Positions 15,320-44,750 of a stretch of DNA of 64,000 bases are shown piece by piece. The position numbers and the translations under genes are program-made. The DNA lies in the NCBI GenBank assembly GCA_051294375.1, contig CM119264.1, forward strand, positions 13,981,323 to 14,045,322. The letters run 5' to 3'. The notes under the pieces are model-generated. The model worked only from the letters and a program-made list of their open reading frames with translations, had not been told where the DNA came from and ran no database searches. The DNA is from Paraspadella gotoi (taxonomy: Eukaryota; Animalia; Chaetognatha). How positions within the stretch are numbered: the stretch's first letter is position 1; the number at the start of each line of letters is the position of its first letter.

Positions 15320-15605
15320 GTACAACAAAATCCCAAAAATATTTTTATGGTTAAAAACCTACGAATAATTTTCCCGTCACTTCTCTTAAATTTAGGGCCA
15401 GTCAGTAATAAAATATTAAAATTCTAAAAAGTTGTAATTACTTTTTTTGCATAAGTTTTTGAGCTCTATCAGAATCAATTAAAAAAACTTAAAATATTCA
15501 ACAAAAATTTTTTATACTACGTATATAGCAATATAATAATTTAAATTACTGAATTACTCATGGTTCGGAACATTTTTGCAAAAAAATATTTTAAAACAAT
15601 AATGA
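15320..15605. repeat. Dispersed AT-rich repeat fragment
   Basis: The reverse complement recurs at ~22525-22800 and, truncated, at ~27090-27240 (shared strings GGTTAAAAACCTACGAATAA, GAGCTCTAT, GTTCGGAACATTTTTGCAAAA). Confidence 0.7.
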
Positions 15606-16573
15606 ATACCGATAATGAATTTGTTTAATGCTGTTCCGATTAAAATTTGAATTTGGTCGGCTACAGTTAAACTCAGCAGCGAATTCCGAAGGACTGACCT
15701 TGTTAGCCCGAGTGAACTTGCGGGTGCTAGTCTCAGTTCTGCTCGGTTCGAAGATTAGATTGCCAGGACTGAACTTGGTTAATATCCCAACACTGATTAA
15801 GTAATCATTCAGTTTTTCTGATTCCATCTACCAAAAGATCACGCGATCAGTTTCAGCGATCCCAATAAATCACCCCATCCGTCCCCTTCCCCAAAAAAGA
15901 GACGAAATTTCGGGGGAAAAAACATCTCCCAATGATCAGACAAGAGAGAGAGAGGGAGAGAGAGAGAGAGAGATGCGAAGATGGAATTGCTGGCGCCGGC
16001 GGCGGCGGCGGCGGCGGCAGCGGCGGCTTGTGGGAGGCCAAAAGATCGCAAAGTTGGGAATTAATTGACATCGTGGACGGGAAAGAATTACCAAGGGTGG
16101 CGGGAATACATCGGGAAGGCAACTAAGATGGAAATATTCTGGAATGGAATGATACAGTGATGTGGCTCGCAGCAAGTTTTACCATTGAGCTCAGACTTTG
16201 CATGAGTTTTAAAGAATTGTAAGCTGAATACTTATTTATTCAAATCAATGAAAAAATTTTATATATTTTTTTTTCTTTTTTTAACGTAATTCAATTTTAA
16301 AATTAAAGGACAAAACGACGCCGACTTATCTACAATTATTTAAATATGATGATCAGAAATTCGACGTCGTTAACCATTAACCACGAGGATAAATTTATTT
16401 GAAAAAATAATTTTGAAAACGATTAAACAGATAGTTACTTGAAACAAATACAAAACTAATATTCATTATTTAAACAAACCCAATGATCAATACATTTAAT
16501 TAAAACGTAACCAATACATAACTTGTGCATAACTAATACGTACATAACTAATACAAGCTAACACTGTCTATCC

Positions 16574-17028
16574 TTAAAAAGATGAACACGTCCGAGTTAA
16601 AGACAAAATAATCTCTCTTCTAAAAATTTCCAAGTCAACAGAGCGGACGATGTTGCAATTGGGAGATTTTCCAAGGAAGCCCCTTCTGTCTACGACCATT
16701 TGCCCGGTTGTGAACTCTCCTTTGGTCTCCACGGTGCAGTATTGCAGTTCTTTCTTTATTACGGCATCCGGGAACAAATAAGCCACCGCTGCCACCTCGT
16801 CGCACCACCACTTGCTGTCAATTTTAGGCCGAACGGTTCCGTCCATCCGACGCACAAATTCGGCCATTGGTTTCGCCGCGCGATCCAGGGTGGTCGTCCA
16901 CAAATTCCATTCCATCCGCGTTTGGTGACAAGTCTCCAAACAGATCATCCACGTGGAAGAACAATTGAGATTCTCCAAAGCATATTTGGCCATGGGCGGA
17001 TCGAATCCGAAATTGTACTCGGAACAAG
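16574..17028 (-). CDS. Nucleoside hydrolase terminal exon variant C (full protein ~331 aa)
   Basis: Acceptor ctcttgtttAG|CT, phase 1. Translates (A)CSEYNFGFDPPMAKYALENL...SKWWCDEVAAVAYLFP...YCTVETKGEFTTGQMVVDRR...TCSSF, ending in TAA. Length 455 = 2 + 151 codons. ATTAAA at 16500-16495 and AATAAA at 16399-16394 lie downstream on the minus strand. Confidence 0.88.
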
Positions 17029-17355
17029 CTAAACAAGAGTTTGGGAAAGACAAATGATTGTCATGATTATTAATCAATATTAAAAAAATTAATTTAGTTT
17101 TTAAAGCCTTGCATCGAATAAACTTAATTATTTTACTAGCTGCAATTAAAAAAAAAATAGCCGAGAACGTTCAATTATTTTTATTTAAATAAAACAAAAT
17201 CAACAAGTTTTAAAAGGCGTAACTATAATTAAGTATTGAATTTAATGTCGTTGGTAAGTTTATAAGCAAAAGAGACAATAAAACAGACCATAAGAGGTAC
17301 GATGAGCAACGCATCGACTTGATTTGAGTTGAAACAAATACGTATTAATAATTCC

Positions 17356-17798
17356 TCAAAAATAGATCAAACTGTTGGAGACTTCCTGCTTAAAAGCTTC
17401 CAAGTCAACGTTTGTTACTATGGTAGCATTGGGACGATTGTTGAGATGACGTCGTCTGTCAACGACCATCTGACCATTGGTAAACTCCCCCTTGACCTCG
17501 ACGGTGCAATATTCGTGCTCAGTTTCCAACACGCCGTCAGGAAAAAGCAACACAAAGGCGGCTACCTCGTCGTTCCAATTCTTTTTGAAGCCTTTTTTAC
17601 AAGCCGACTTCTCTATATTTTGAACAAGCTTCGAGATCGGCGAGCCGATTCGATCCAAGGTCTCTCGCCACGATGCCCAACCGACCCGATTTTTCATGCA
17701 GGTCTCCCATCCGACGATCCAAGTCGAAGAACAGCGGAGATGCTCCAGAGCGAACTTGGCAGCGGGGGGATCGAAGCCGAAGTTGAACTCGGCGCAAA
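17356..17798 (-). CDS. Nucleoside hydrolase terminal exon variant B (full protein ~327 aa)
   Basis: Acceptor tttccttcgaccAG|TT, phase 1. Translates (V)CAEFNFGFDPPAAKFALEHL...KKNWNDEVAAFVLLFP...YCTVEVKGEFTNGQMVVDRR...SLIYF, ending in TGA. Length 443 = 2 + 147 codons. AATAAA on the minus strand at 17185-17180. Confidence 0.88.
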
Positions 17799-17956
17799 CT
17801 GGTCGAAGGAAAATATAAATAAATTGGAGGGTTGTTAAAATAAACAACATCGGCTTTAATTTGTTATTAAAAGAGAAAATATATTAATATTAGAGCTGAA
17901 GTTTTCATGTAAAGAAAAAAAAATTCAAAAGGCATGACAAAAATAAATCAACAGAA

Positions 17957-18144
17957 TATGGCAACAGCCGGGTTGCCTGTGATACCCATTGGGATGGGGC
18001 ATCTCACTGTTGGCTTTGGGGGCTTCCGACCCTCAGTGACGCCTCCAGTCACTGGCGCGGTTACCCGAGGACGGTCTCGCTTTGCCAACGCAGAGGGAAG
18101 GCTGAAGGATGGTGGACGTGAGGCGGTGTTAATATACCGCCACA
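17957..18144 (-). mobile_element. 188-bp solo-LTR-like (Gypsy-type) or Ginger-like non-autonomous element, copy 1
   Basis: On the minus strand it reads TGTGGC...GCCATA (5/6 terminal inverted match). It is flanked by the 4-bp direct repeat AGAA (17953-17956 and 18145-18148) and is homologous to 28521-28753. GC-rich within an AT-rich intron. Confidence 0.75.
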
Positions 18145-18463
18145 AGAACTTCTTTCTTTTATGGTCCGATTTCTAAAAGTTGGGACGTCTCCGTTGAACT
18201 CCGTTGAACTATTTTCATTCTTCAGTTTTCGAAAACAATTACAATTCCGTAACTCTAATCCTAACAAAGGTAAAGTTTGACGAAAGAAAACAAGTCTTCT
18301 CTTGGGTACATTGTTGGTAGATAAAAATCTACTTTTAAATAAAAACAAACCATTTTATCTTTGTATAAATTCTACAAACAAAAATTCATAAAATCTACTT
18401 ACAATTAGTAATGTAGAATACAATCACAGATCTTTTTTCGAGATTATTTTTTACAGTATCATC

Positions 18464-18924
18464 TCATGCGCTCAATCGCGACAACGACAACAAAATCTCC
18501 CGGTTGAAGGCGCTCGAGTCGATGGCGGCGACGATAGAGGCGTTGGGCGGCTTCCCGAAGACGTGAAGCCTATCGACAATCATGAGTCCGTCAGTGAACT
18601 CTCCCTTAGTTTCCACGGTGCAGTACTCCCTCTCTTCCCGCGAAACCGACTCCGGAAACAGCATCACGAAGGCGGCCACTTCGTCGAAAAACTTTCTGCA
18701 TGGCGCTGAATTCGGGTGATCTCTCTGCAACGCGATTTCCATCTTCTTCGCAAAGGCCGATATGGGCGTGTCGACGCGATCCAACGACGCCGTTCGCGAG
18801 GGCCACGCCTCTTTAATTTGGAGGCAGGTTTCCAAGGCGACGATTCGCGTCGACGCGCCGGGGAGATTCTCTAGGACGAATTTGGCGGCGAACGAATCGT
18901 AGCCAAAGTTAAATTCGCTGCAAA
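18464..18924 (-). CDS. Nucleoside hydrolase terminal exon variant A (C-terminal half; full protein ~333 aa)
   Basis: Acceptor ttttttcAG|TT, phase 1. Translates (V)CSEFNFGYDSFAAKFVLENLPGASTRIVALETC...PCRKFFDEVAAFVMLFP...YCTVETKGEFTDGLMIVDR...SLSRLSA, ending in TGA at 18466-18464. Length 461 = 2 + 153 codons, with no frameshift. Confidence 0.9.
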
Positions 18925-19279
18925 CTGAAAAAAATAACTTACCTTCGAGAACGCAACGGTGTTGAAAAAAAAGAACGTAGTTTCTTTAGAGTTCAAAAAC
19001 GACGCCAAAAATAATTATAATTTTCTTAAGGTAAAGAATTTTAATTCGAGTAAGCTCTATGTAACAAGTTTACAAAGGTCGCCGTTACTTCTAGATTATC
19101 TTGTTAGTAAAACAACGGAATATTGTTTCTGGCCCAGTTATCTGGTAGAGTTGAACATTTCAAGAAGTGGACTCAGTCAACTCAGAAAACAGAAGCTCGA
19201 CTCTTACTTCATAGTCATAAAAACTATTTCTCTCTGACGCAAGGATTTAAGCCTTCATGACGCTCAATTTTTACTCCAC

Positions 19280-19461
19280 CTTTGAAGTTGGCTTGTCCGG
19301 CGTAGTTCCCGCCCATGATGGTGCAGGATCGAAGCTTCTCGCCGAGTTCGGGGTCTTTCTTCAAAGCCTTGGCCAGATTGGTCAAAGGACCCAGCATTAG
19401 CAGGTCGAGTTTGCCGCGGTACAAGTTCGCCGAGTCGATGATAACGTCGACTGCATCACGG
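19280..19461 (-). CDS. Nucleoside hydrolase coding exon 3 (last constant exon)
   Basis: Acceptor tttcAG|C follows a 74-nt intron. Translates RDAVDVIIDSANLYRGKLDLLMLGPLTNLAKALKKDPELGEKLRSCTIMGGNYAGQANFK, with the GPLTNLA and MGG motifs. The phase-1 donor AAAG|GTGGAG is inferred because it is in phase with all three downstream acceptors and gives the usual N-x4-(A/S)EFN spacing. Confidence 0.9.
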
Positions 19462-19535
19462 CTGAAATCAAAACGAAAATAAATTCTCCTCAAAATTTCT
19501 TTTTCGACCCCCCCCCCCCACATTTCGATCCTAAC

Positions 19536-19728
19536 TCCGGAGGCTGCACGACGTCATCCTTGTCCTCCCGATCGGGCATGTCCCCCAACCCATCGTGTCC
19601 GTGGTAAGGATCTTCTTCTGGAGGAACGTACGGTGTGTCGGTTCGTCCCACGAACGTCTCCACATCGTGTCCACATTTCTTTAGAACGTACTTGACGTTT
19701 TTGTAAGCGTTTATGGCGGAAGTGTTGC
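19536..19728 (-). CDS. Nucleoside hydrolase coding exon 2 (not in the ORF track)
   Basis: Acceptor tttAG|GC completes the Gly codon from exon 1. Translates GNTSAINAYKNVKYVLKKCGHDVETFVGRTDTPYVPPEEDPYHGHDGLGDMPDREDKDDVVQPP-D, with the conserved GN and HGxDGLGD motifs. Donor GA|GTTAGG. Length 193 = 2+189+2. Confidence 0.93.
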
Positions 19729-20932
19729 CTAAATGGATAGTGGGAGGTGAAAATTATTTAAATTTAATTTTATTATTCGTCAATTGTTAGAGAAACAATC
19801 AAATTCGAAAGCCCAACACGTAGAGGCAAAATACCACGTCCAAAAAACAATCTGATATTTCATATCGAGATGACTATTTAGCTTTTAATATAGCTTGATT
19901 ACTGTGTCATAGCTTGTTCTGTTTTTAGTCTCGAACATCAGTTAAATCTTAAAATATACTGTGGGTTAAGAAATAGAGGCGGGAGAGCTAACTCATAGAG
20001 GTGGTAGAAAAAATGTCAGATTAAGCACCTGCCTGGCAAACGAAAATTAGACATTTTTTAAGAACAATCTGAATAGTTAAAGTGATCTCTTACTTTTATA
20101 ATTACCTCCATACTCAATATGATTAATTGTGTTTATCATATATGTATCATGTGTAGAAATAGGCGAAAGTCTATATATATTCTTTATTTCTATTTTTTGA
20201 TTTTAGATCAGATTCAGGTTCGCTTGCAAAAAGTTGTCTACACAAAGTATAATTCATTTATATTCGATATTTTCAAGTCATACATGTAAAAATCTATGAA
20301 AAAACGATTTATAATCATTCTATCATCATTCTATTTTTCTGATCTTAATTTTGTATTATCTTTTTCCTTAATTTTGTCCAAGAGAAACATAAAATTTTGG
20401 AAAGTTGTAGTTTAAAGTCTGTATTATTTAACTTCTTATGCTCTATCAAGGAAATCCATCAAGAAAAAAGTTAAGATCTTATGATTAAATTATAAATTTT
20501 ATTATCCATGTCGATATTAGAATATTGTATTTTAATAGCAACAATAAAAGCATTAAAATCGATACTTTTTAAAAATATCTTACTTAATTTTTTCGACCTT
20601 AAAAGTAGACTTCAAGAAATAAAGTTTTGAACCCCCCCTATATTGAATTTAATTCATGTAGATTTCTAGTTAAAAGATAATTAAATTTATTTTTTTTTTT
20701 AATCTGTTTGAATATGTGGAAAGAGAAAGATAAAAAGAAGAGTTGAAAGGAAAAGCGAAAAAAGAAAAAGATACGAGAAGAGATCGGGAGAGAGAAAGAA
20801 GGAAAAAATAGGAGACGGACAGAAAGAGAGATCCAAGAAACACAGTGAGAGATGATAGGCAGAACAGAGTAAAAGCACAGAAAGACAACAAAGAGACTAC
20901 GGAGTACGGTATCTCAATTTATGAAAAAATAC

Positions 20933-21088
20933 CGTCTTACAGTGGTGACAGCCACGATTTTCGCTCGGTCGGGATTCGCGAGGATGAGAATGATCGCCTG
21001 AGCGTCGTCAAGCCCAAATCCGTGTCGATCAGGACGAGACGCCCGGTCGCGCACTCGATCTACAGATGGGGCTGCAACCATCGGACAT
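20933..21088 (-). pseudogene. Second, indel-containing copy of nucleoside hydrolase exon 1 (probably an uncorrected read or other haplotype; possibly a real duplicate)
   Basis: Near-identical to 25696-25861 (GLDDAQAIILILANPDRAKIVAVTTV is visible), but small indels break the DTDCG motif and the frame. It lies in block 20772-22700, which duplicates 25539-27247 starting immediately after a 25-N gap. Confidence 0.6.
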
Positions 21089-23699
21089 GGCGGGAATTCG
21101 GCGTGAAAAGTATCGGCGCAAACTTGCGATGGTCGAATAATCTTCGCGACTTTGAAAATGTTCAACAGTACGTCGGAAAATCGTAAGAATAAATTGTCCG
21201 ATCAAACATGAAAAAAGAAAACGGCGCGAAAAATTAAAGAGTTGACAAGAGTACTTCTCCCTCTTTTAATATTGTATTTTGTTTATTCAGTTGTAAGATG
21301 CACAAAAATAGATTTCCTTTCTTGATAAAAAATAAAAGATCATAGACTATATACGAGACAATTGAATTACTCCCGGTCAACAGGAAAATTAAATAATTTT
21401 TTTGTGTCCAATCAAAATAGTCTTGTATTAGCTGTGCGGAGTCTATATTACGATCTTCAAGGGTGTTTTAACAAGAATCGAAATTAATTCATTATGGGAA
21501 CCAGGTACTCTGGATAATAAACGAGCTGAGATCTGATGAAAGTCTGACCCTTGTCAATCTTAAGTATGGAGGCCTACCAACCTGTCAAGTCGCAAGATAG
21601 TTTTAAGAAGAAATTTATATGACATCAAGAGGTGTTAAAATTAAGAATAGCCGTTTATTTGGGTTTATGAACATTTTTAGCGGTCACTCGGATTAAAAAG
21701 AAAAGAGAGAAGAGAAAAAACAGCTAGCCATATAGAAGTACGATGGCCACATTTGCCTCACGCTTGCGGTAGTTGTATTTTAGGGTTCAACTTTGGTTTG
21801 ACCAAGTTGCATTTGGAAATCGTCGTTTTCACCCTGAGTCATTTTCTTGTCGTCTGAAATTTATTTATCCCATAAGTTATATACAATGGTTATATACAAC
21901 GTTGTCCGCATATTAAATTTATAAGTTAGAAAATTTTCATCGTTTTTTAGACAAAGTTGGCGATAAGAAAAAAGAAAAGCAAAAAAAGCAAAGAAACTAA
22001 AAAACAAAAAAATGAGTGAGAGATTAAAGCAGAGATTTTTTAATAAGAAAGCTATAAATTTCCCTTATGATTAGTATTAGCTGTTTTTAAAAAAAAAATG
22101 ACATTTGATTCTCTACCCAGCAGCATTCTAAAGAAGAGAGAACTATTTTCTATTTAAAAAAAAACTAAATTGAAGATAAATAAGATGTAAATTTAATTAA
22201 GGAAATAAGATCGAAGGGAAAAAGAAAAAACTGAATTGTATTCTGTCTCCCAGTCTCCGACTGAACCATAGACACAGGTCTTTTCAAATTTTTTTATGTT
22301 GAACTTTTCTTTTATTAAAACGCCCTTTTTTGAAAAAAATTATAAAGCCCATTTTTTGTTTTAAATTTTCCTCCTCTTCTTTCATTCGCCTATTTTTTCT
22401 TGGGATACTCAGAGTCAGAAACCATTGGATCTGGAAAAAGATTAAAAGATATAATTTAGGTAGCGGTAGCCGACCAAATTTAAATTTATAAATGGGAAGA
22501 GCATTAACAGAATCCATTATTGGTATTAGTTATTGTGTTAAAATATTGTTTTTGCAAAAATGTTCCGAACGCATTAGTAATTCGTAATTAAAATTATTAT
22601 ATCTGCCATATAATGTCAAAAAAAATTTGGGAGAATATTTTAAGTTTTTTTAATTGATTTTGAATAGAGCTCAAAAAGTTAAGCAAAAAATGACCTTTTT
22701 TAAAATTTGTCATGTTTTAACACTGACTGCGCTCTAACTTTAATGATAAGTGACTGAAAATTTATTCGTAGGTTTTTAACCATAAAAATATTTTTTGATT
22801 TGTTTAGTTATTTTTTTTTTTTTTGGCTGAGCCATCGTTCGAACGAAGTTCTGAAATCAAGATTTCCTTTATATTTTACTTCTTATTCAAAAACTTGCAT
22901 TAGTCAAGGCCCAATATAAATTATTCAATATGGGTAGATTTTCAAAAGCTTTAGCGTCTTGGGAAGCCAACGGAGGTAGAGCGCGACGAAATTCCCATTT
23001 TATTCATGCCCAAAATGCGTTAATTTTAAATGAAACTGGTCAGACCGTTTTTTCCCTTTTCCCAAAAAACCTGCTTGATCTTTTGTTAAAATAGAAACAA
23101 ATCATACCATATCAGTTATGGTTTCGGATAGCTTATTAGTCTTCTCTACTAGATAAAAAAGAAAAGTTTAAATTCTTTGCAATCTTTGAATGCTGATTAA
23201 AGCAATCAAATGAATGGTTTTTTTAGGTGAAAACTGCTAGTTCAAGCCTTCAATTTTTTTTTGTTCTAAGACCATCGAAAGAAACTGTATTTGTTTTTTA
23301 CTAATTTGTTTTCAGGTAGAGCGCGGGGGTAAATTTAGAGAGTTTAATTAAATTATAGAAGCAAATAGAAAGGATATCAAGTTTTTGCACCGCTAAAAGC
23401 TTTTTTTAAGCGCGTTCCGGTCTGTATTGAAAATCGGTTGACGTAGGTTATCAATGAGACATCAATTAAAAATAAGCATTGATCATGCGCGATCCTGCGG
23501 GCCAGATAAATACCATTATTTTCAAACATGGCTTTACCGTTATTTTTACGTTTTAGAACGGCAGTCTGTAATGAAATGTTTTGAATTTCACGCCTGTGAT
23601 ATTGGCGTTCTAGCGTCGTTTGTCCCTTGTTAGTCTCTTTATCTTATCTCTTGAAGAGACATTAATTATTGTTATGTGATAGTGACAAAACCGTTCAAT

Positions 23700-23870
23700 A
23701 AAAATCTTAAAAGCAATAGGGATCGAGCCTACTTTATGATACCAAATATTGATGCGATGATAACCAAATATTTGATGCGAAGATAACGAAGGATTTGATG
23801 CGATTGATAACCAAAATTGATGGATGCGATGGTGTAATCATGCGATGATAGTCATTCATTTGACGTCACG
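23700..23870 (-). mobile_element. 3' end of a second copy of the same HINE-like family, reverse orientation
   Basis: ATCGAGCCTACTTT at 23722 onward is the reverse complement of AAAGTAGGCTCGAT (7276-7289). It is followed by the reverse complement of the ATCATCGCATCAAT minisatellite seen at 7060-7270. Confidence 0.6.
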
Positions 23871-23877
23871 TGGACTT

Positions 23878-25110
23878 TTGAAAAAGTATGCATATTTTAA
23901 AAAAAAGTATGCTCTTTTTCCAAAGTATGCCTACTTTTTCAAAGTATGCCTACTTTTTTCAAAGTATGCCTACTTTTTTCAAGTATTGCCTACTTTTCAA
24001 AAGTATGCCTACTTTTTTCAAAGATGCATACTTTTTTCATAGTTATGCATACTTTTTTCATAGTATTGCATACTTTTTTCATAGTATGCATACTTTTGTT
24101 CATAGTATGCATACTTTTTTAATAGTTATGCATACTTTTTTCATTTAGTATGCATACTTTTTACTTTTTGAAAAAAAGTATGGCATACTTTTTTCAAAGT
24201 ATGTCATATCTTTTACAAAAGTATGCATATCTTTTCAAAGTTATGCATACTTTTTTTCAAAGTAGCCATACTTTTTTCAAAAGTATGCATATCTTTTTCA
24301 AAGTATGCATATCTTTTTCAAAGTATGCATATCTTTTCAAAGTATGCATACTTTTTAAAAGGTATGCATATCTTTTTCAAAGTATGCATTATCTTTTCAA
24401 AGTATGCATATCTTTTTCAAAAGTATGGCATATCTTTTTCAAAGTATGCATATTCTTTTTCAAAGTATGCATATCTTTTCAAAGATGCATATCTTTTTTC
24501 AAAGTATGGCATATCTTTTTCAAAGTATGCATATCCTTTTCAAAGTATGCATATCTTTTTCAAAGTATGCATATCTTTTCAAAGTATGCATATCTTTTTT
24601 CAATATATGCATATCTTTTTTCAAAGTATGCATATCTTTTTCAACTTGCATATCTTTTTCCAACTTGCATATCTTTCAACTGCATATCTTTTTCAACTGC
24701 ATATCTTTTTCAACTTGCATATCTTTTTCAACTTGCATATTCTTTTTTCAACTTGCATATCTTTTCAACTTGCATATCTTTTTCAACTTGCATATCTTTT
24801 TCACTTGCATATCTTGTTTCAACTTGCATATCTTTTTTTCAACTTGCATATCCTTTTTCAACTTGATTACTCTTTTTCAACTTGCATATCTTTTTCAAAC
24901 TTCTTTTTTCTTTCTGCATATCTTTTTCAACTGCATATCTTTTTCAGCTTGATATCTTTTTTCAACTTGCATTATCTTTTGTCAACTTGCATATCTTTTT
25001 TCAACTTGCATATCTTTTTTCAACTTGCATATCTTTTTCAACTTGCATATCTTTTTCAACTTGCATATCTTTTTCAACTTGCCATATCTTTTTCAACTTG
25101 CATACTTTTA
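23878..25110. repeat. Tandem satellite array, 18-21-bp unit (AAAGTATGCATA(T)CTTTTTC grading to AACTTGCATATCTTTTTC)
   Basis: Roughly 60 head-to-tail units with no unique spacers. It explains the repetitive KYAYLF/MHIFF ORFs in the track. Confidence 0.92.
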
Positions 25111-25695
25111 AACTTGATTACCGACTAAATATCTTAGTCAAATCCGACATTGTTTGCCCAAACTTGTTCATAATAAAAATAAAGCCGGATTCAGATTATG
25201 ACAAAATTTTTTAAATAATAATATCGTCATCATCATTAGTAAATTGAAAATTTAATCGTGAGAGTACGATGCTGCAATTCTTAATCTTGAATTACGATAT
25301 TAAATTGAGTAGTTTAATTAGTAGTTTTGCTGGTGAGATTCAGTCAATATACTTTCAATTTATTACTTCCTTTGGCTCTCTTGTCTTTTCCTTGTTTTAT
25401 TCTGTTATAATTATGTTATTTTTTGTGATTAATATTGTAAAGGATTCCTTTTTTTTCCGAGCTTCGCTCTATTCTATTTTCTCTTAGAGGCCCGCGTTCG
25501 ATCTCTCTCTTTTNNNNNNNNNNNNNNNNNNNNNNNNNTACGAGAAGAGATCGGGAGAGAGAAAGAAGGAAAAAATAGGGAGACGGACAGAAAGAGAGAT
25601 CCAAGAAACACAGTGAGAGATATAGGCAGAACAGAGTAAAACAGAAAGACAACAAAGAGACTACGGAGTACGGTATCTCAATTTATGAAAAATAC

Positions 25696-25861
25696 CGTCT
25701 ACAGTGGTGACAGCCACGATTTTCGCTCGGTCGGGATTCGCGAGGATGAGAATGATCGCCTGAGCGTCGTCAAGCCCACAATCCGTGTCGATCAGGACGA
25801 GACGCCGGTCGTCGGCGTCGCCTCGATTGCTGACCGACTGGGGGCCTGCAACCTCGGACAT
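25696..25861 (-). CDS. Nucleoside hydrolase (IUNH family), coding exon 1, clean copy
   Basis: ATG at 25861-25859 in the context cgccATG. Translates MSEVAGPQSVSNRGDADDRRLVLIDTDCGLDDAQAIILILANPDRAKIVAVTTVD-G, with the family DxDxxxDD Ca2+-binding motif. Ends in a phase-1 donor G|GTATTT (GT at 25695-25694). Length 166 = 55 codons + 1. Confidence 0.92.
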
Positions 25862-27247
25862 GGCGCGTGAATTCGGCGGGAAAAGTATCGGCGCAAACTT
25901 GCGATGGTCGAATATCTTCGCGACTTTGAAAATGTTCACAGTTACGTCGGAAAATAGTAAGAATAATTTGTCCGATCTAAACATGAAAAAAGAAAACGGC
26001 CGCGAAAAATTAAAGAGTTGACAAAGAGTACGTTCTTCTTTTAATATGTATTTTGTTTTATTCATTTGTAAAGAATGCACAAAAATAGATTTCCTTTTTT
26101 GATAAAAAATATTAATAAGTATTCCCATTGAGAACTATTATAACGAGATCAACATTTGAACTTAGCAACTCGACCATGAGGTCTAAATCATGGAAGAAAA
26201 ATATAGAGGGTTAAAATTATAAATAGCCGTTTATTTGGGTTTATGAACATTTTTAGCGGTCACTCGGATTTAAAAAGAAAAGAGAGAAAGAGAAAAAACA
26301 GCTAGCCAATAGAAGTACGGATGGCCACAGTTTGCCTTCACGCTTGCGGTAGTGTGTTTTTAGGGTTCAACTTTGGTTGACCAAGTTGCATGGAAATCGT
26401 CGTTTCACCTGAGTCATTTCCTTGTCGTCTGAATTTATTTATCCCATAAGTTATATACAATGGTTATATACAACGGTTGTCCCATATTAAATTATAATTA
26501 GAAAATTTTCATCGTTTTTAGAACAAAGTTGGCGATAAAGAAATAAAAAAATCAAAAAAAGCAAAGAAACTAAAAAGCAAAAAAATCGGTGAGAGATTAA
26601 GAGAAATTTTTTATAAGAAAGCTACTAATTTCCCTTATGATTATTTTAGCTGTTTTTAAAAAAAAATGACGTTTGATTCTCTACCCAGCAGCATTCTAAA
26701 GAAGAGAGAACTTTTTCTATTTAAAAAAAACTAATTGAAGATAAATAAGATGTAATTTAATTAAGGAATAAGATCGAAGGGAAAAAAGAGAAAACTGAAT
26801 TGTATTCTGTTATAAAACAAAAAAAAGATCCAGTCTCCGACTGAACCATAGACACAGGTCTTTTCAATTTTTTTTATGCTTGAACTTTTCTTTTAAAACC
26901 CCTTTTTTGAAAAAAAATTAAGCCCCATTTTTGTTTTTAAATTTTCCTACTCTTCTTTCACTTCGCCTATTTTTCTTGGGATACTCAGAACCATTGGATC
27001 TGGAAAAAGATTAAAAGATTAAATTTAGGTAGCGGAAGCCGACCAAATTTAAATTTTAATGGGAAGAGCATTAAACGAATCCATTATTGGTATTAGTTAT
27101 TGTGTTAAAATATTTTTTTGCAAAAATGTTCCGAACCATTAGTAATTCGTTAATTAAAATTATTATATTGCCATATAATGGTAAAAATTTTGGGGGGATA
27201 TTTTAAGTTTTTTTAATTGAAAAGTTAAGCAAAAAATGAACTTTTTT

Positions 27248-28520: not shown

Positions 28521-28753
28521 TGTGGCCGTATATTCACACCGCCTCACGTCCCTTGGCTCACAGGGGGAACGCACCATCACAGGCGTTGCGTTCCATCCAG
28601 TCCTAACGAATTCCATCTGTATTGGCAAAGCGAGACCGTCCTAGGGTAACTGCGCCAGTGACAGGATGCGTCACTGACGGTCGGAACCCCCCAGAACCAA
28701 TAGTGAGATGTCCCATCCCAATGGGCATTACAGGTAACCCGGCCGTTGCCATA
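28521..28753 (+). mobile_element. 233-bp solo-LTR-like or Ginger-like element, copy 2
   Basis: Reads TGTGGC...GCCATA, flanked by a different 4-bp direct repeat, ATGT (28517-28520 and 28754-28757). Homology to copy 1 stops exactly at these termini. It is 45 bp longer internally. Confidence 0.75.

Positions 28754-29449: not shown

Positions 29450-44750
<15,301 letters not shown>

Follow-up and report, generated by a model that had tools for sequence, protein, structure and literature searches.

In Paraspadella gotoi, one nucleoside hydrolase gene splices three common exons onto one of three tandem, homologous last exons, and its products are likely three full-length enzymes, probably with different base preferences or catalytic routes. 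We give this reading a probability of about 0.8. The three joins are of the GT-AG type and lead into open frames, all three last exons are under purifying selection, and the three arose within this lineage. Three different active enzymes would be expected to result.

Gene organization

The gene, a member of the nucleoside hydrolase family PF01156, lies on the minus strand of the window, by which we mean the whole 64-kb stretch of P. gotoi DNA that was analysed, taken from a noisy assembly. Its three common exons and its three homologous last exons, referred to as cassettes A, B and C, are as follows:

20938..21324, minus strand: exon 1; covered by RNA from 21324, start codon ATG at 21088, carries the DxDxxxDD calcium fingerprint
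19536..19728, minus strand: exon 2, common to all isoforms; GN motif and His-containing loop, PF01156 positions 35-89
19280..19461, minus strand: exon 3, common; Pfam positions 98-155, phase 1 end at GT
18464..18924, minus strand: last exon A; C-terminal half of 152 aa, isoform of 333 aa
17230..17798, minus strand: last exon B; coding 17798-17356, 146 aa, isoform of 327 aa, 3' UTR to 17230
16433..17028, minus strand: last exon C; coding 17028-16574, 150 aa, isoform of 331 aa, 3' UTR to 16433

Each cassette has a pyrimidine-rich AG acceptor, a phase 1 start, an open frame and its own stop, and each begins just before the motif C-[SA]-E-[FY]-N-F-G. Joining the exons by their coordinates gives open frames of 333, 327 and 331 aa for A, B and C, with 180 codons in common. 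PF01156 is tiled over positions 1-297 by exon 1 (1-32), exon 2 (35-89), exon 3 (98-155) and any one of the cassettes (159-296/297), the cassettes matching their part of the model with E values of 3e-16 to 4e-21. A sequence-only reading of this DNA had described a phase-1 exon 3 followed by three homologous last exons, and the coordinates, phases, stops and Pfam matches agree with that description.

The same reading held that the spacers between the cassettes lack motifs of exons 1 to 3. The A-B spacer measures 665 nt and the B-C spacer 327 nt, whereas exons 1-3 comprise 541 nt of coding sequence. A tblastn search of the whole window, queried with exons 1 and 3 and the three cassettes, found no exon-1 or exon-3 homology in either spacer, in keeping with the claim for these two exons; no DNA homology was found between the two spacers. 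The insertion thought to fill part of the A-B spacer proved to be a dispersed repeat, accounting for about 190 of the 665 nt:

17957..18144: dispersed repeat in the A-B spacer, with an 88% inverted copy at 28611-28753

A second dispersed repeat family occurs at 15335-15664, 22466-22795 and 27037-27220. Elsewhere in the window, at 44321-44704 on the minus strand, a low-complexity frame has a weak Pfam match to Cwf15/Cwc15 that misses the cut-off (E 2e-4) and is probably compositional.

Transcript evidence

All transcript data are contigs of one public run (X1) from one study, whose status as RNA is presumed and which may be the source of the assembly; runs X2 and X3 gave nothing. Of the words of 16500-19760, a fraction of 0.54 is present in X1, roughly what the exons make up there. 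Intron bins without X1 cover (e.g. 18979-19165 and 19914-20100) are consistent with RNA and say no more than that. Introns 1 and 2 are skipped in the contigs, with joints from 20938 to 19729 and from 19536 to 19461. The dispersed repeat at 17957-18144 is very abundant in X1, with many unrelated contigs piling up there.

Three junctions had been predicted from the letters of the window, 19280 to 18924, 19280 to 17798 and 19280 to 17028. All three were found in X1 contigs, each of them GT-AG and all using the donor at 19280, the end of exon 3. Over cassettes B and C and exons 2-3 the contigs deviate from the window by 0-2 letters, and the B and C joints are covered by just 30 letters on the exon-3 side. 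A common upstream exon is spliced to each of the cassettes, in one run and, for A, on a variant allele. The proposal of one gene with a choice among three last exons is supported by these joints from a single common 5' part, together with the purifying selection described below.

The join to A requires separate description. A 44-nt contig identical to the exon-3 end in the window branches to B and C only, while the contig that joins A has one other letter in exon 3, placed by graph logic at 19293, where it falls on the third base of a Gln codon, and a second, synonymous one within A at 18671. No join of the window's own exon-3 allele to A was seen in the X1 contig graph. Either the choice of last exon is biased by allele, or a second copy of the gene is present, or low-depth links were lost by contig simplification. 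Contig depths are 5.7 for the A join, 21.3 for B, 32.5 for C and 55.4 for the window-type end of exon 3. The exon 1-3 contig is single, and a depth of 55.4 against 21.3 + 32.5 fits one source splitting, a match that is a consistency hint only because contig depth is a poor measure of expression.

The B contig ends at 17230, 126 nt past its stop and 11 nt after an ATTAAA (17246), and the C contig ends at 16433, 141 nt past its stop and likewise near a signal-like hexamer (ATTAAA/AATGAA at the B and C ends). The A contig does not reach the stop codon of A, breaking off at 18468. No poly(A) tail was present for A, B or C in the X1 contigs.

In the window, assembly indels disrupt the frame of exon 1 (ATG 21088, end 20938), and the X1 contig over 21324-20938, which joins to 19729, differs from the window by 11 other letters and 27 gaps. 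An open copy of the exon was also found:

25696..25861, minus strand: second exon-1 copy, open; beside the N gap 25514-25538, Pfam positions 1-32

The DxDxxxDD fingerprint is intact in the open copy, and RNA restores a base that is absent from the window copy of exon 1; the RNA contig reads like the open copy at both frame-breaking places that were compared (21016 and the end of the exon). The surrounding sequence, 25539-27247, matches 20772-22701 at 88-92%, with differences that are mostly noise-like indels and a match that ends at the gap; most likely the assembly has duplicated one and the same DNA here. A 20-nt tandem array lies at about 23860-25120, near the 25-N gap and this duplicate.

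Divergence, selection and origin of the cassettes

The cassettes had been judged by eye to be about half identical and to be old duplicates. Protein identity is 47% for A/B, 47% for A/C and 54% for B/C, and synonymous sites are saturated, with pS of 0.73, 0.79 and 0.75 and pN of 0.34, 0.34 and 0.33 in a codon alignment of the three pairs, so both judgements hold. In all three pairs, zero lies outside the bootstrap interval of pS-pN. For A/B, dN/dS is about 0.16, while correction of dS was impossible for the other two pairs because of saturation. The check on selection that had been suggested for A, B and C is answered by these values (pN 0.33-0.34 against pS 0.73-0.79). When neutral copies were simulated at 0.3-0.5 substitutions per site, 0.5-2% of them were stop-free (5000 trials). 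A, B and C are all under purifying selection. Of the 33 columns conserved in the family, A keeps 25, B 27 and C 25, compared with a median of 29 and a minimum of 25 among homologs.

A tree of 46 C-terminal halves was built from A, B and C and 43 homologs hand-picked from 262 proteins. The three cassettes form one clade (100/96, with the bootstrap not fully settled) that adjoins five single relatives, and the duplications are old but lineage-specific. By eye, the junction compares residue for residue with that of the nearest relatives, N-F-K-V-C-S-E against N-T-G-I-C-S-E, where the aligner produced gapped pieces. No pair with a shared front and alternative tails was found among the only five close relatives that the homolog searches gave (P0003, P0004, P0005, P0012 and P0100), a sample too small to establish absence. 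A metagenome scan returned 47 pattern matches, 0 of which were confirmed.

The swapped half of the active site

In the available text of a review of the family (PMC8910321), calcium is bound by two Asp of DxDxxxDD and by a third Asp far downstream. The residue before this last Asp acts in leaving-group activation and tells the groups apart: group I has His, group II Trp and the metazoan group III Cys (PMC8910321). The same text names helix alpha8 as governing purine use and strands beta8-beta9 as the major oligomer surface, and it describes the mechanism and physiological role of the metazoan Cys-type hydrolases as unresolved (PMC8910321).

The DxDxxxDD fingerprint and the His loop are common to the three isoforms, whereas the E-F-N motif, the last Asp and the residue preceding it are swapped. 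Judging from the order of the fold, alpha8, or the base-contacting helix region, and beta8-beta9 would also fall in the swapped half, which most likely carries the main oligomer surface as well. In an alignment with the 43 homologs the third Ca-binding Asp is kept in all three cassettes, and the residue before it is Phe in A, Asn in B and Cys in C. The group III Cys is therefore found in C only. His, the mark of group I, precedes the last Asp in none of the three, and neither does Trp, the mark of group II, the common loop having His. In 120 homologs this position is Cys in 89, Ala in 17, Tyr in 6, Ser in 3, Phe in 2, Val in 2, His in 1 and Asn in 0. The Cys-Asp-Glu of isoform C aligns to the C-D-E motif of PDB 5mj7, which we take to be the C. 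elegans nucleoside hydrolase; IAG-NH chains were the weakest PDB matches. C keeps the usual animal (group III) state, and A and B are derived. The loop before the last Asp also differs in length in A.

It is likely that the substrate preferences of the three isoforms differ, given where these substitutions fall. At the same time, 31 of the 120 homologs (about 26%) have a residue other than Cys here, so the position tolerates change and the differences among A, B and C may be drift. The three isoforms occur naturally, have the same front half and carry Cys, Phe or Asn at the position that defines the groups, which makes them a ready-made comparison for the Cys-type mechanism.

Choice of the last exon

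The three acceptors would compete for the common donor of exon 3, and the choice of acceptor would be coupled to cleavage at the chosen exon's own 3' end. Use of a proximal exon would end the transcript, and skipping of it would expose the next. The isoforms so produced would keep the common calcium and ribose fingerprint and diverge in base preference or in catalytic route or rate.

The common donor is weak (G/GTGGAG, with the slash marking the splice point), and a perfect donor-like site stands close to the first acceptor:

18937..18944, minus strand: donor-like AG/GTAAGT, perfect, 18 nt before acceptor A; one of 2 such 8-mers on both strands of the 64 kb

This site resembles a recursive-splice or decoy site, and it is possible that it serves as one or the other; no X1 contig joint uses it. 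Downstream of A, no AATAAA or ATTAAA is found until 17860. Read-through to B and C may be favoured by the combination of a weak donor, a donor-like decoy and the absence of a canonical poly(A) signal downstream of A. A shared docking site of the PGRP-LC type was not found above shuffles, the best pairing reaching -12.3 kcal/mol against -10.5 to -17.1 for shuffles; the docking pairing of C alone beat its own shuffles (0/40 as strong, by a margin of 0.1). A segment early in intron 3, 19251-19234, can pair at -17.7 kcal/mol with about 17116-17097, a partner that sits about 70-90 nt before acceptor C. This pairing was picked post hoc and is a lead only.

Parallels in clams and amphioxus

RefSeq isoform pairs from Ruditapes (XP_060579043.1/XP_060579044.1) and Mercenaria (XP_053381443.1/XP_053381444.1), found among 345 fetched proteins, have a comparable design. 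They are automated annotations, known here as protein isoforms. In each pair the first 206 aa are identical and are followed by homologous tails that are 38-39% identical to each other, the residue before the last Asp being Cys in one tail and Val in the other. Each tail is conserved at 74-75% between Ruditapes and Mercenaria. Like the Paraspadella gene, these pairs belong to the same family and combine a common front with homologous tails that differ before the last Asp; they differ from it in having two tails and in a breakpoint that follows the E-F-N motif, about 40 residues further on. The clam tails are far from A, B and C in the tree, and because both breakpoint and tree position differ, the clam origin is likely independent. 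Gene models of Mya (P0006/P0023) hold both clam tails in a row. The clam version is likely an independent two-cassette system, and the pairs suggest that this device has evolved more than once within a single family of housekeeping enzymes, apparently without having been described.

A Branchiostoma pair (P0055/P0059) and a further Mercenaria pair (P0043/P0081) swap an internal homologous segment around E-F-N, and these swaps look like mutually exclusive internal exons. Perch isoforms with 205 residues in common were rejected as a parallel, their tails being non-homologous.

Alternative explanations

A stronger version of the preferred reading would make the cassette a catalytic switch that yields three hydrolases with different substrates, one of the Cys type, one with an aromatic-stacking Phe and one of an undescribed Asn type, exon duplication in this enzyme having arisen at least three times in animals (at the 3' end in this lineage and in clams, internally in amphioxus). 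If so, these natural chimeras would isolate the unexplained leaving-group mechanism of group III. We hold this version tentatively, with the odds somewhat against it. The opposite view, that splicing is real and the isoforms are near-redundant, with duplicated half-genes kept for dosage, for tissue control through the 3' UTR or for stability and the active-site changes being tolerated drift, we regard as rather unlikely. It would account for the homologs without Cys before the last Asp (31/120), and it draws on the available text of the same review, in which archaeal nucleoside hydrolases function with neither His nor Trp at this position and the C. elegans group III enzyme has broad specificity (PMC8910321). 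It sits poorly, however, with the rarity of the residues involved (Asn in 0/120 and Phe in 2/120 homologs), with the altered loop length in A, and with the clam pair, in which this position likewise varies, being Cys in one tail and Val in the other, and both tails are kept across species at 74-75%.

The pattern of joins to A raises the question of whether the window allele uses B and C only, A being used by a second haplotype or a near-identical gene copy, in which case the choice would be allele-specific. The A-join contig carries both a variant exon 3 and a variant A and leads to neither B nor C, the window-type contig of 44 nt leads to these two only, a second exon-1 region exists at 25.5-27.2 kb, and the donor-like AG/GTAAGT lies 18 nt before acceptor A. 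Yet contig simplification may, on general reasoning about assemblers, drop low-depth links and give just such a pattern where an ordinary minor allele is present; the A of the window is intact and under purifying selection; and the differences of the second exon-1 copy, which runs up to a gap, are for the most part noise-like indels. We consider allele-specific use of A improbable. The noise of the assembly could also be taken to mean that the joins are artefacts, processed copies or mis-assembly and that B and C are nonfunctional relics of tandem duplication. This is hardly credible in view of exact GT-AG joints at all three predicted places, the match of B, C and exons 2-3 to contigs with 0-2 other letters, and frames that are open despite saturated synonymous divergence. 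One gene with a choice among three last exons is the explanation that we prefer. Where a locus of this kind is counted as a single gene or as fragments of a pseudogene, such diversity would be overlooked.

Comparison with known gene layouts

The sequence-only reading had likened the gene to a mirror image of the UGT1A and protocadherin design. In the accessible text of one source, UGT1A and the clustered protocadherins combine constant exons with variable homologous exons, the variable ones being first exons chosen by promoters (PMC9013439). As in the hydrolase gene, a set of products comes from one locus through constant and variable exons. In the hydrolase, however, the 5' part is common, and the variable exons are 3', lack the fingerprint, stand last and would be chosen at splicing and 3' end formation. 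The closest precedents are not this design but tandem 3' cassette clusters and insect GSTs.

Tandem 3' cassette clusters include Drosophila pip (a sulfotransferase), PGRP-LC and CG42235, as described in the available parts of two sources (PMC6191721, PMC9013439). In these genes, as in the hydrolase, common 5' exons are spliced to one of several duplicated terminal cassettes, and pip also encodes an enzyme; the hydrolase has the tandem homologous terminal exons, in one phase and with their own stops, that characterize this layout. It differs in having three single-exon cassettes, each of them half of one catalytic domain, and no shared docking or selector pairing above shuffles.

A common 5' exon with alternative 3' exons is also described for Anopheles GSTS1 and SOD3 (PMC1797171) and for Drosophila GSTO2A/B (PMC4195677), in the portions of these papers that are available. 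These are single-domain or small metabolic enzymes in which, as in the hydrolase, the N-terminus is constant and the C-terminal part is swapped, but the hydrolase is of another family and is split inside the active site, just before E-F-N. Anopheles GSTD1 reportedly has a common 5' exon with alternative 3' exons as well. The available text of two papers (PMC9540044, PMC8727960) contains nothing on GSTD1 splicing.

Within its own enzyme family, isoform C resembles the group III hydrolase of C. elegans in its DxDxxxDD fingerprint and Cys-Asp-Glu, while A (Phe) and B (Asn) are unlike the Cys of that group. It had been suggested that no such arrangement was known for nucleoside hydrolases. The titles found in open-access literature searches and the available text of two family reviews contain no report of an alternative-exon design for this family, and 'splic' or 'exon' has 0 occurrences in one nucleoside hydrolase review; to that extent the suggestion stands, although the clam pairs are already annotated in RefSeq. 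The layout itself is known, and the nucleoside hydrolase is a further instance of it. Because such layouts are well known, the surprise is limited, and the added interest lies in the swap of a group-defining active-site residue and in the clam parallel.
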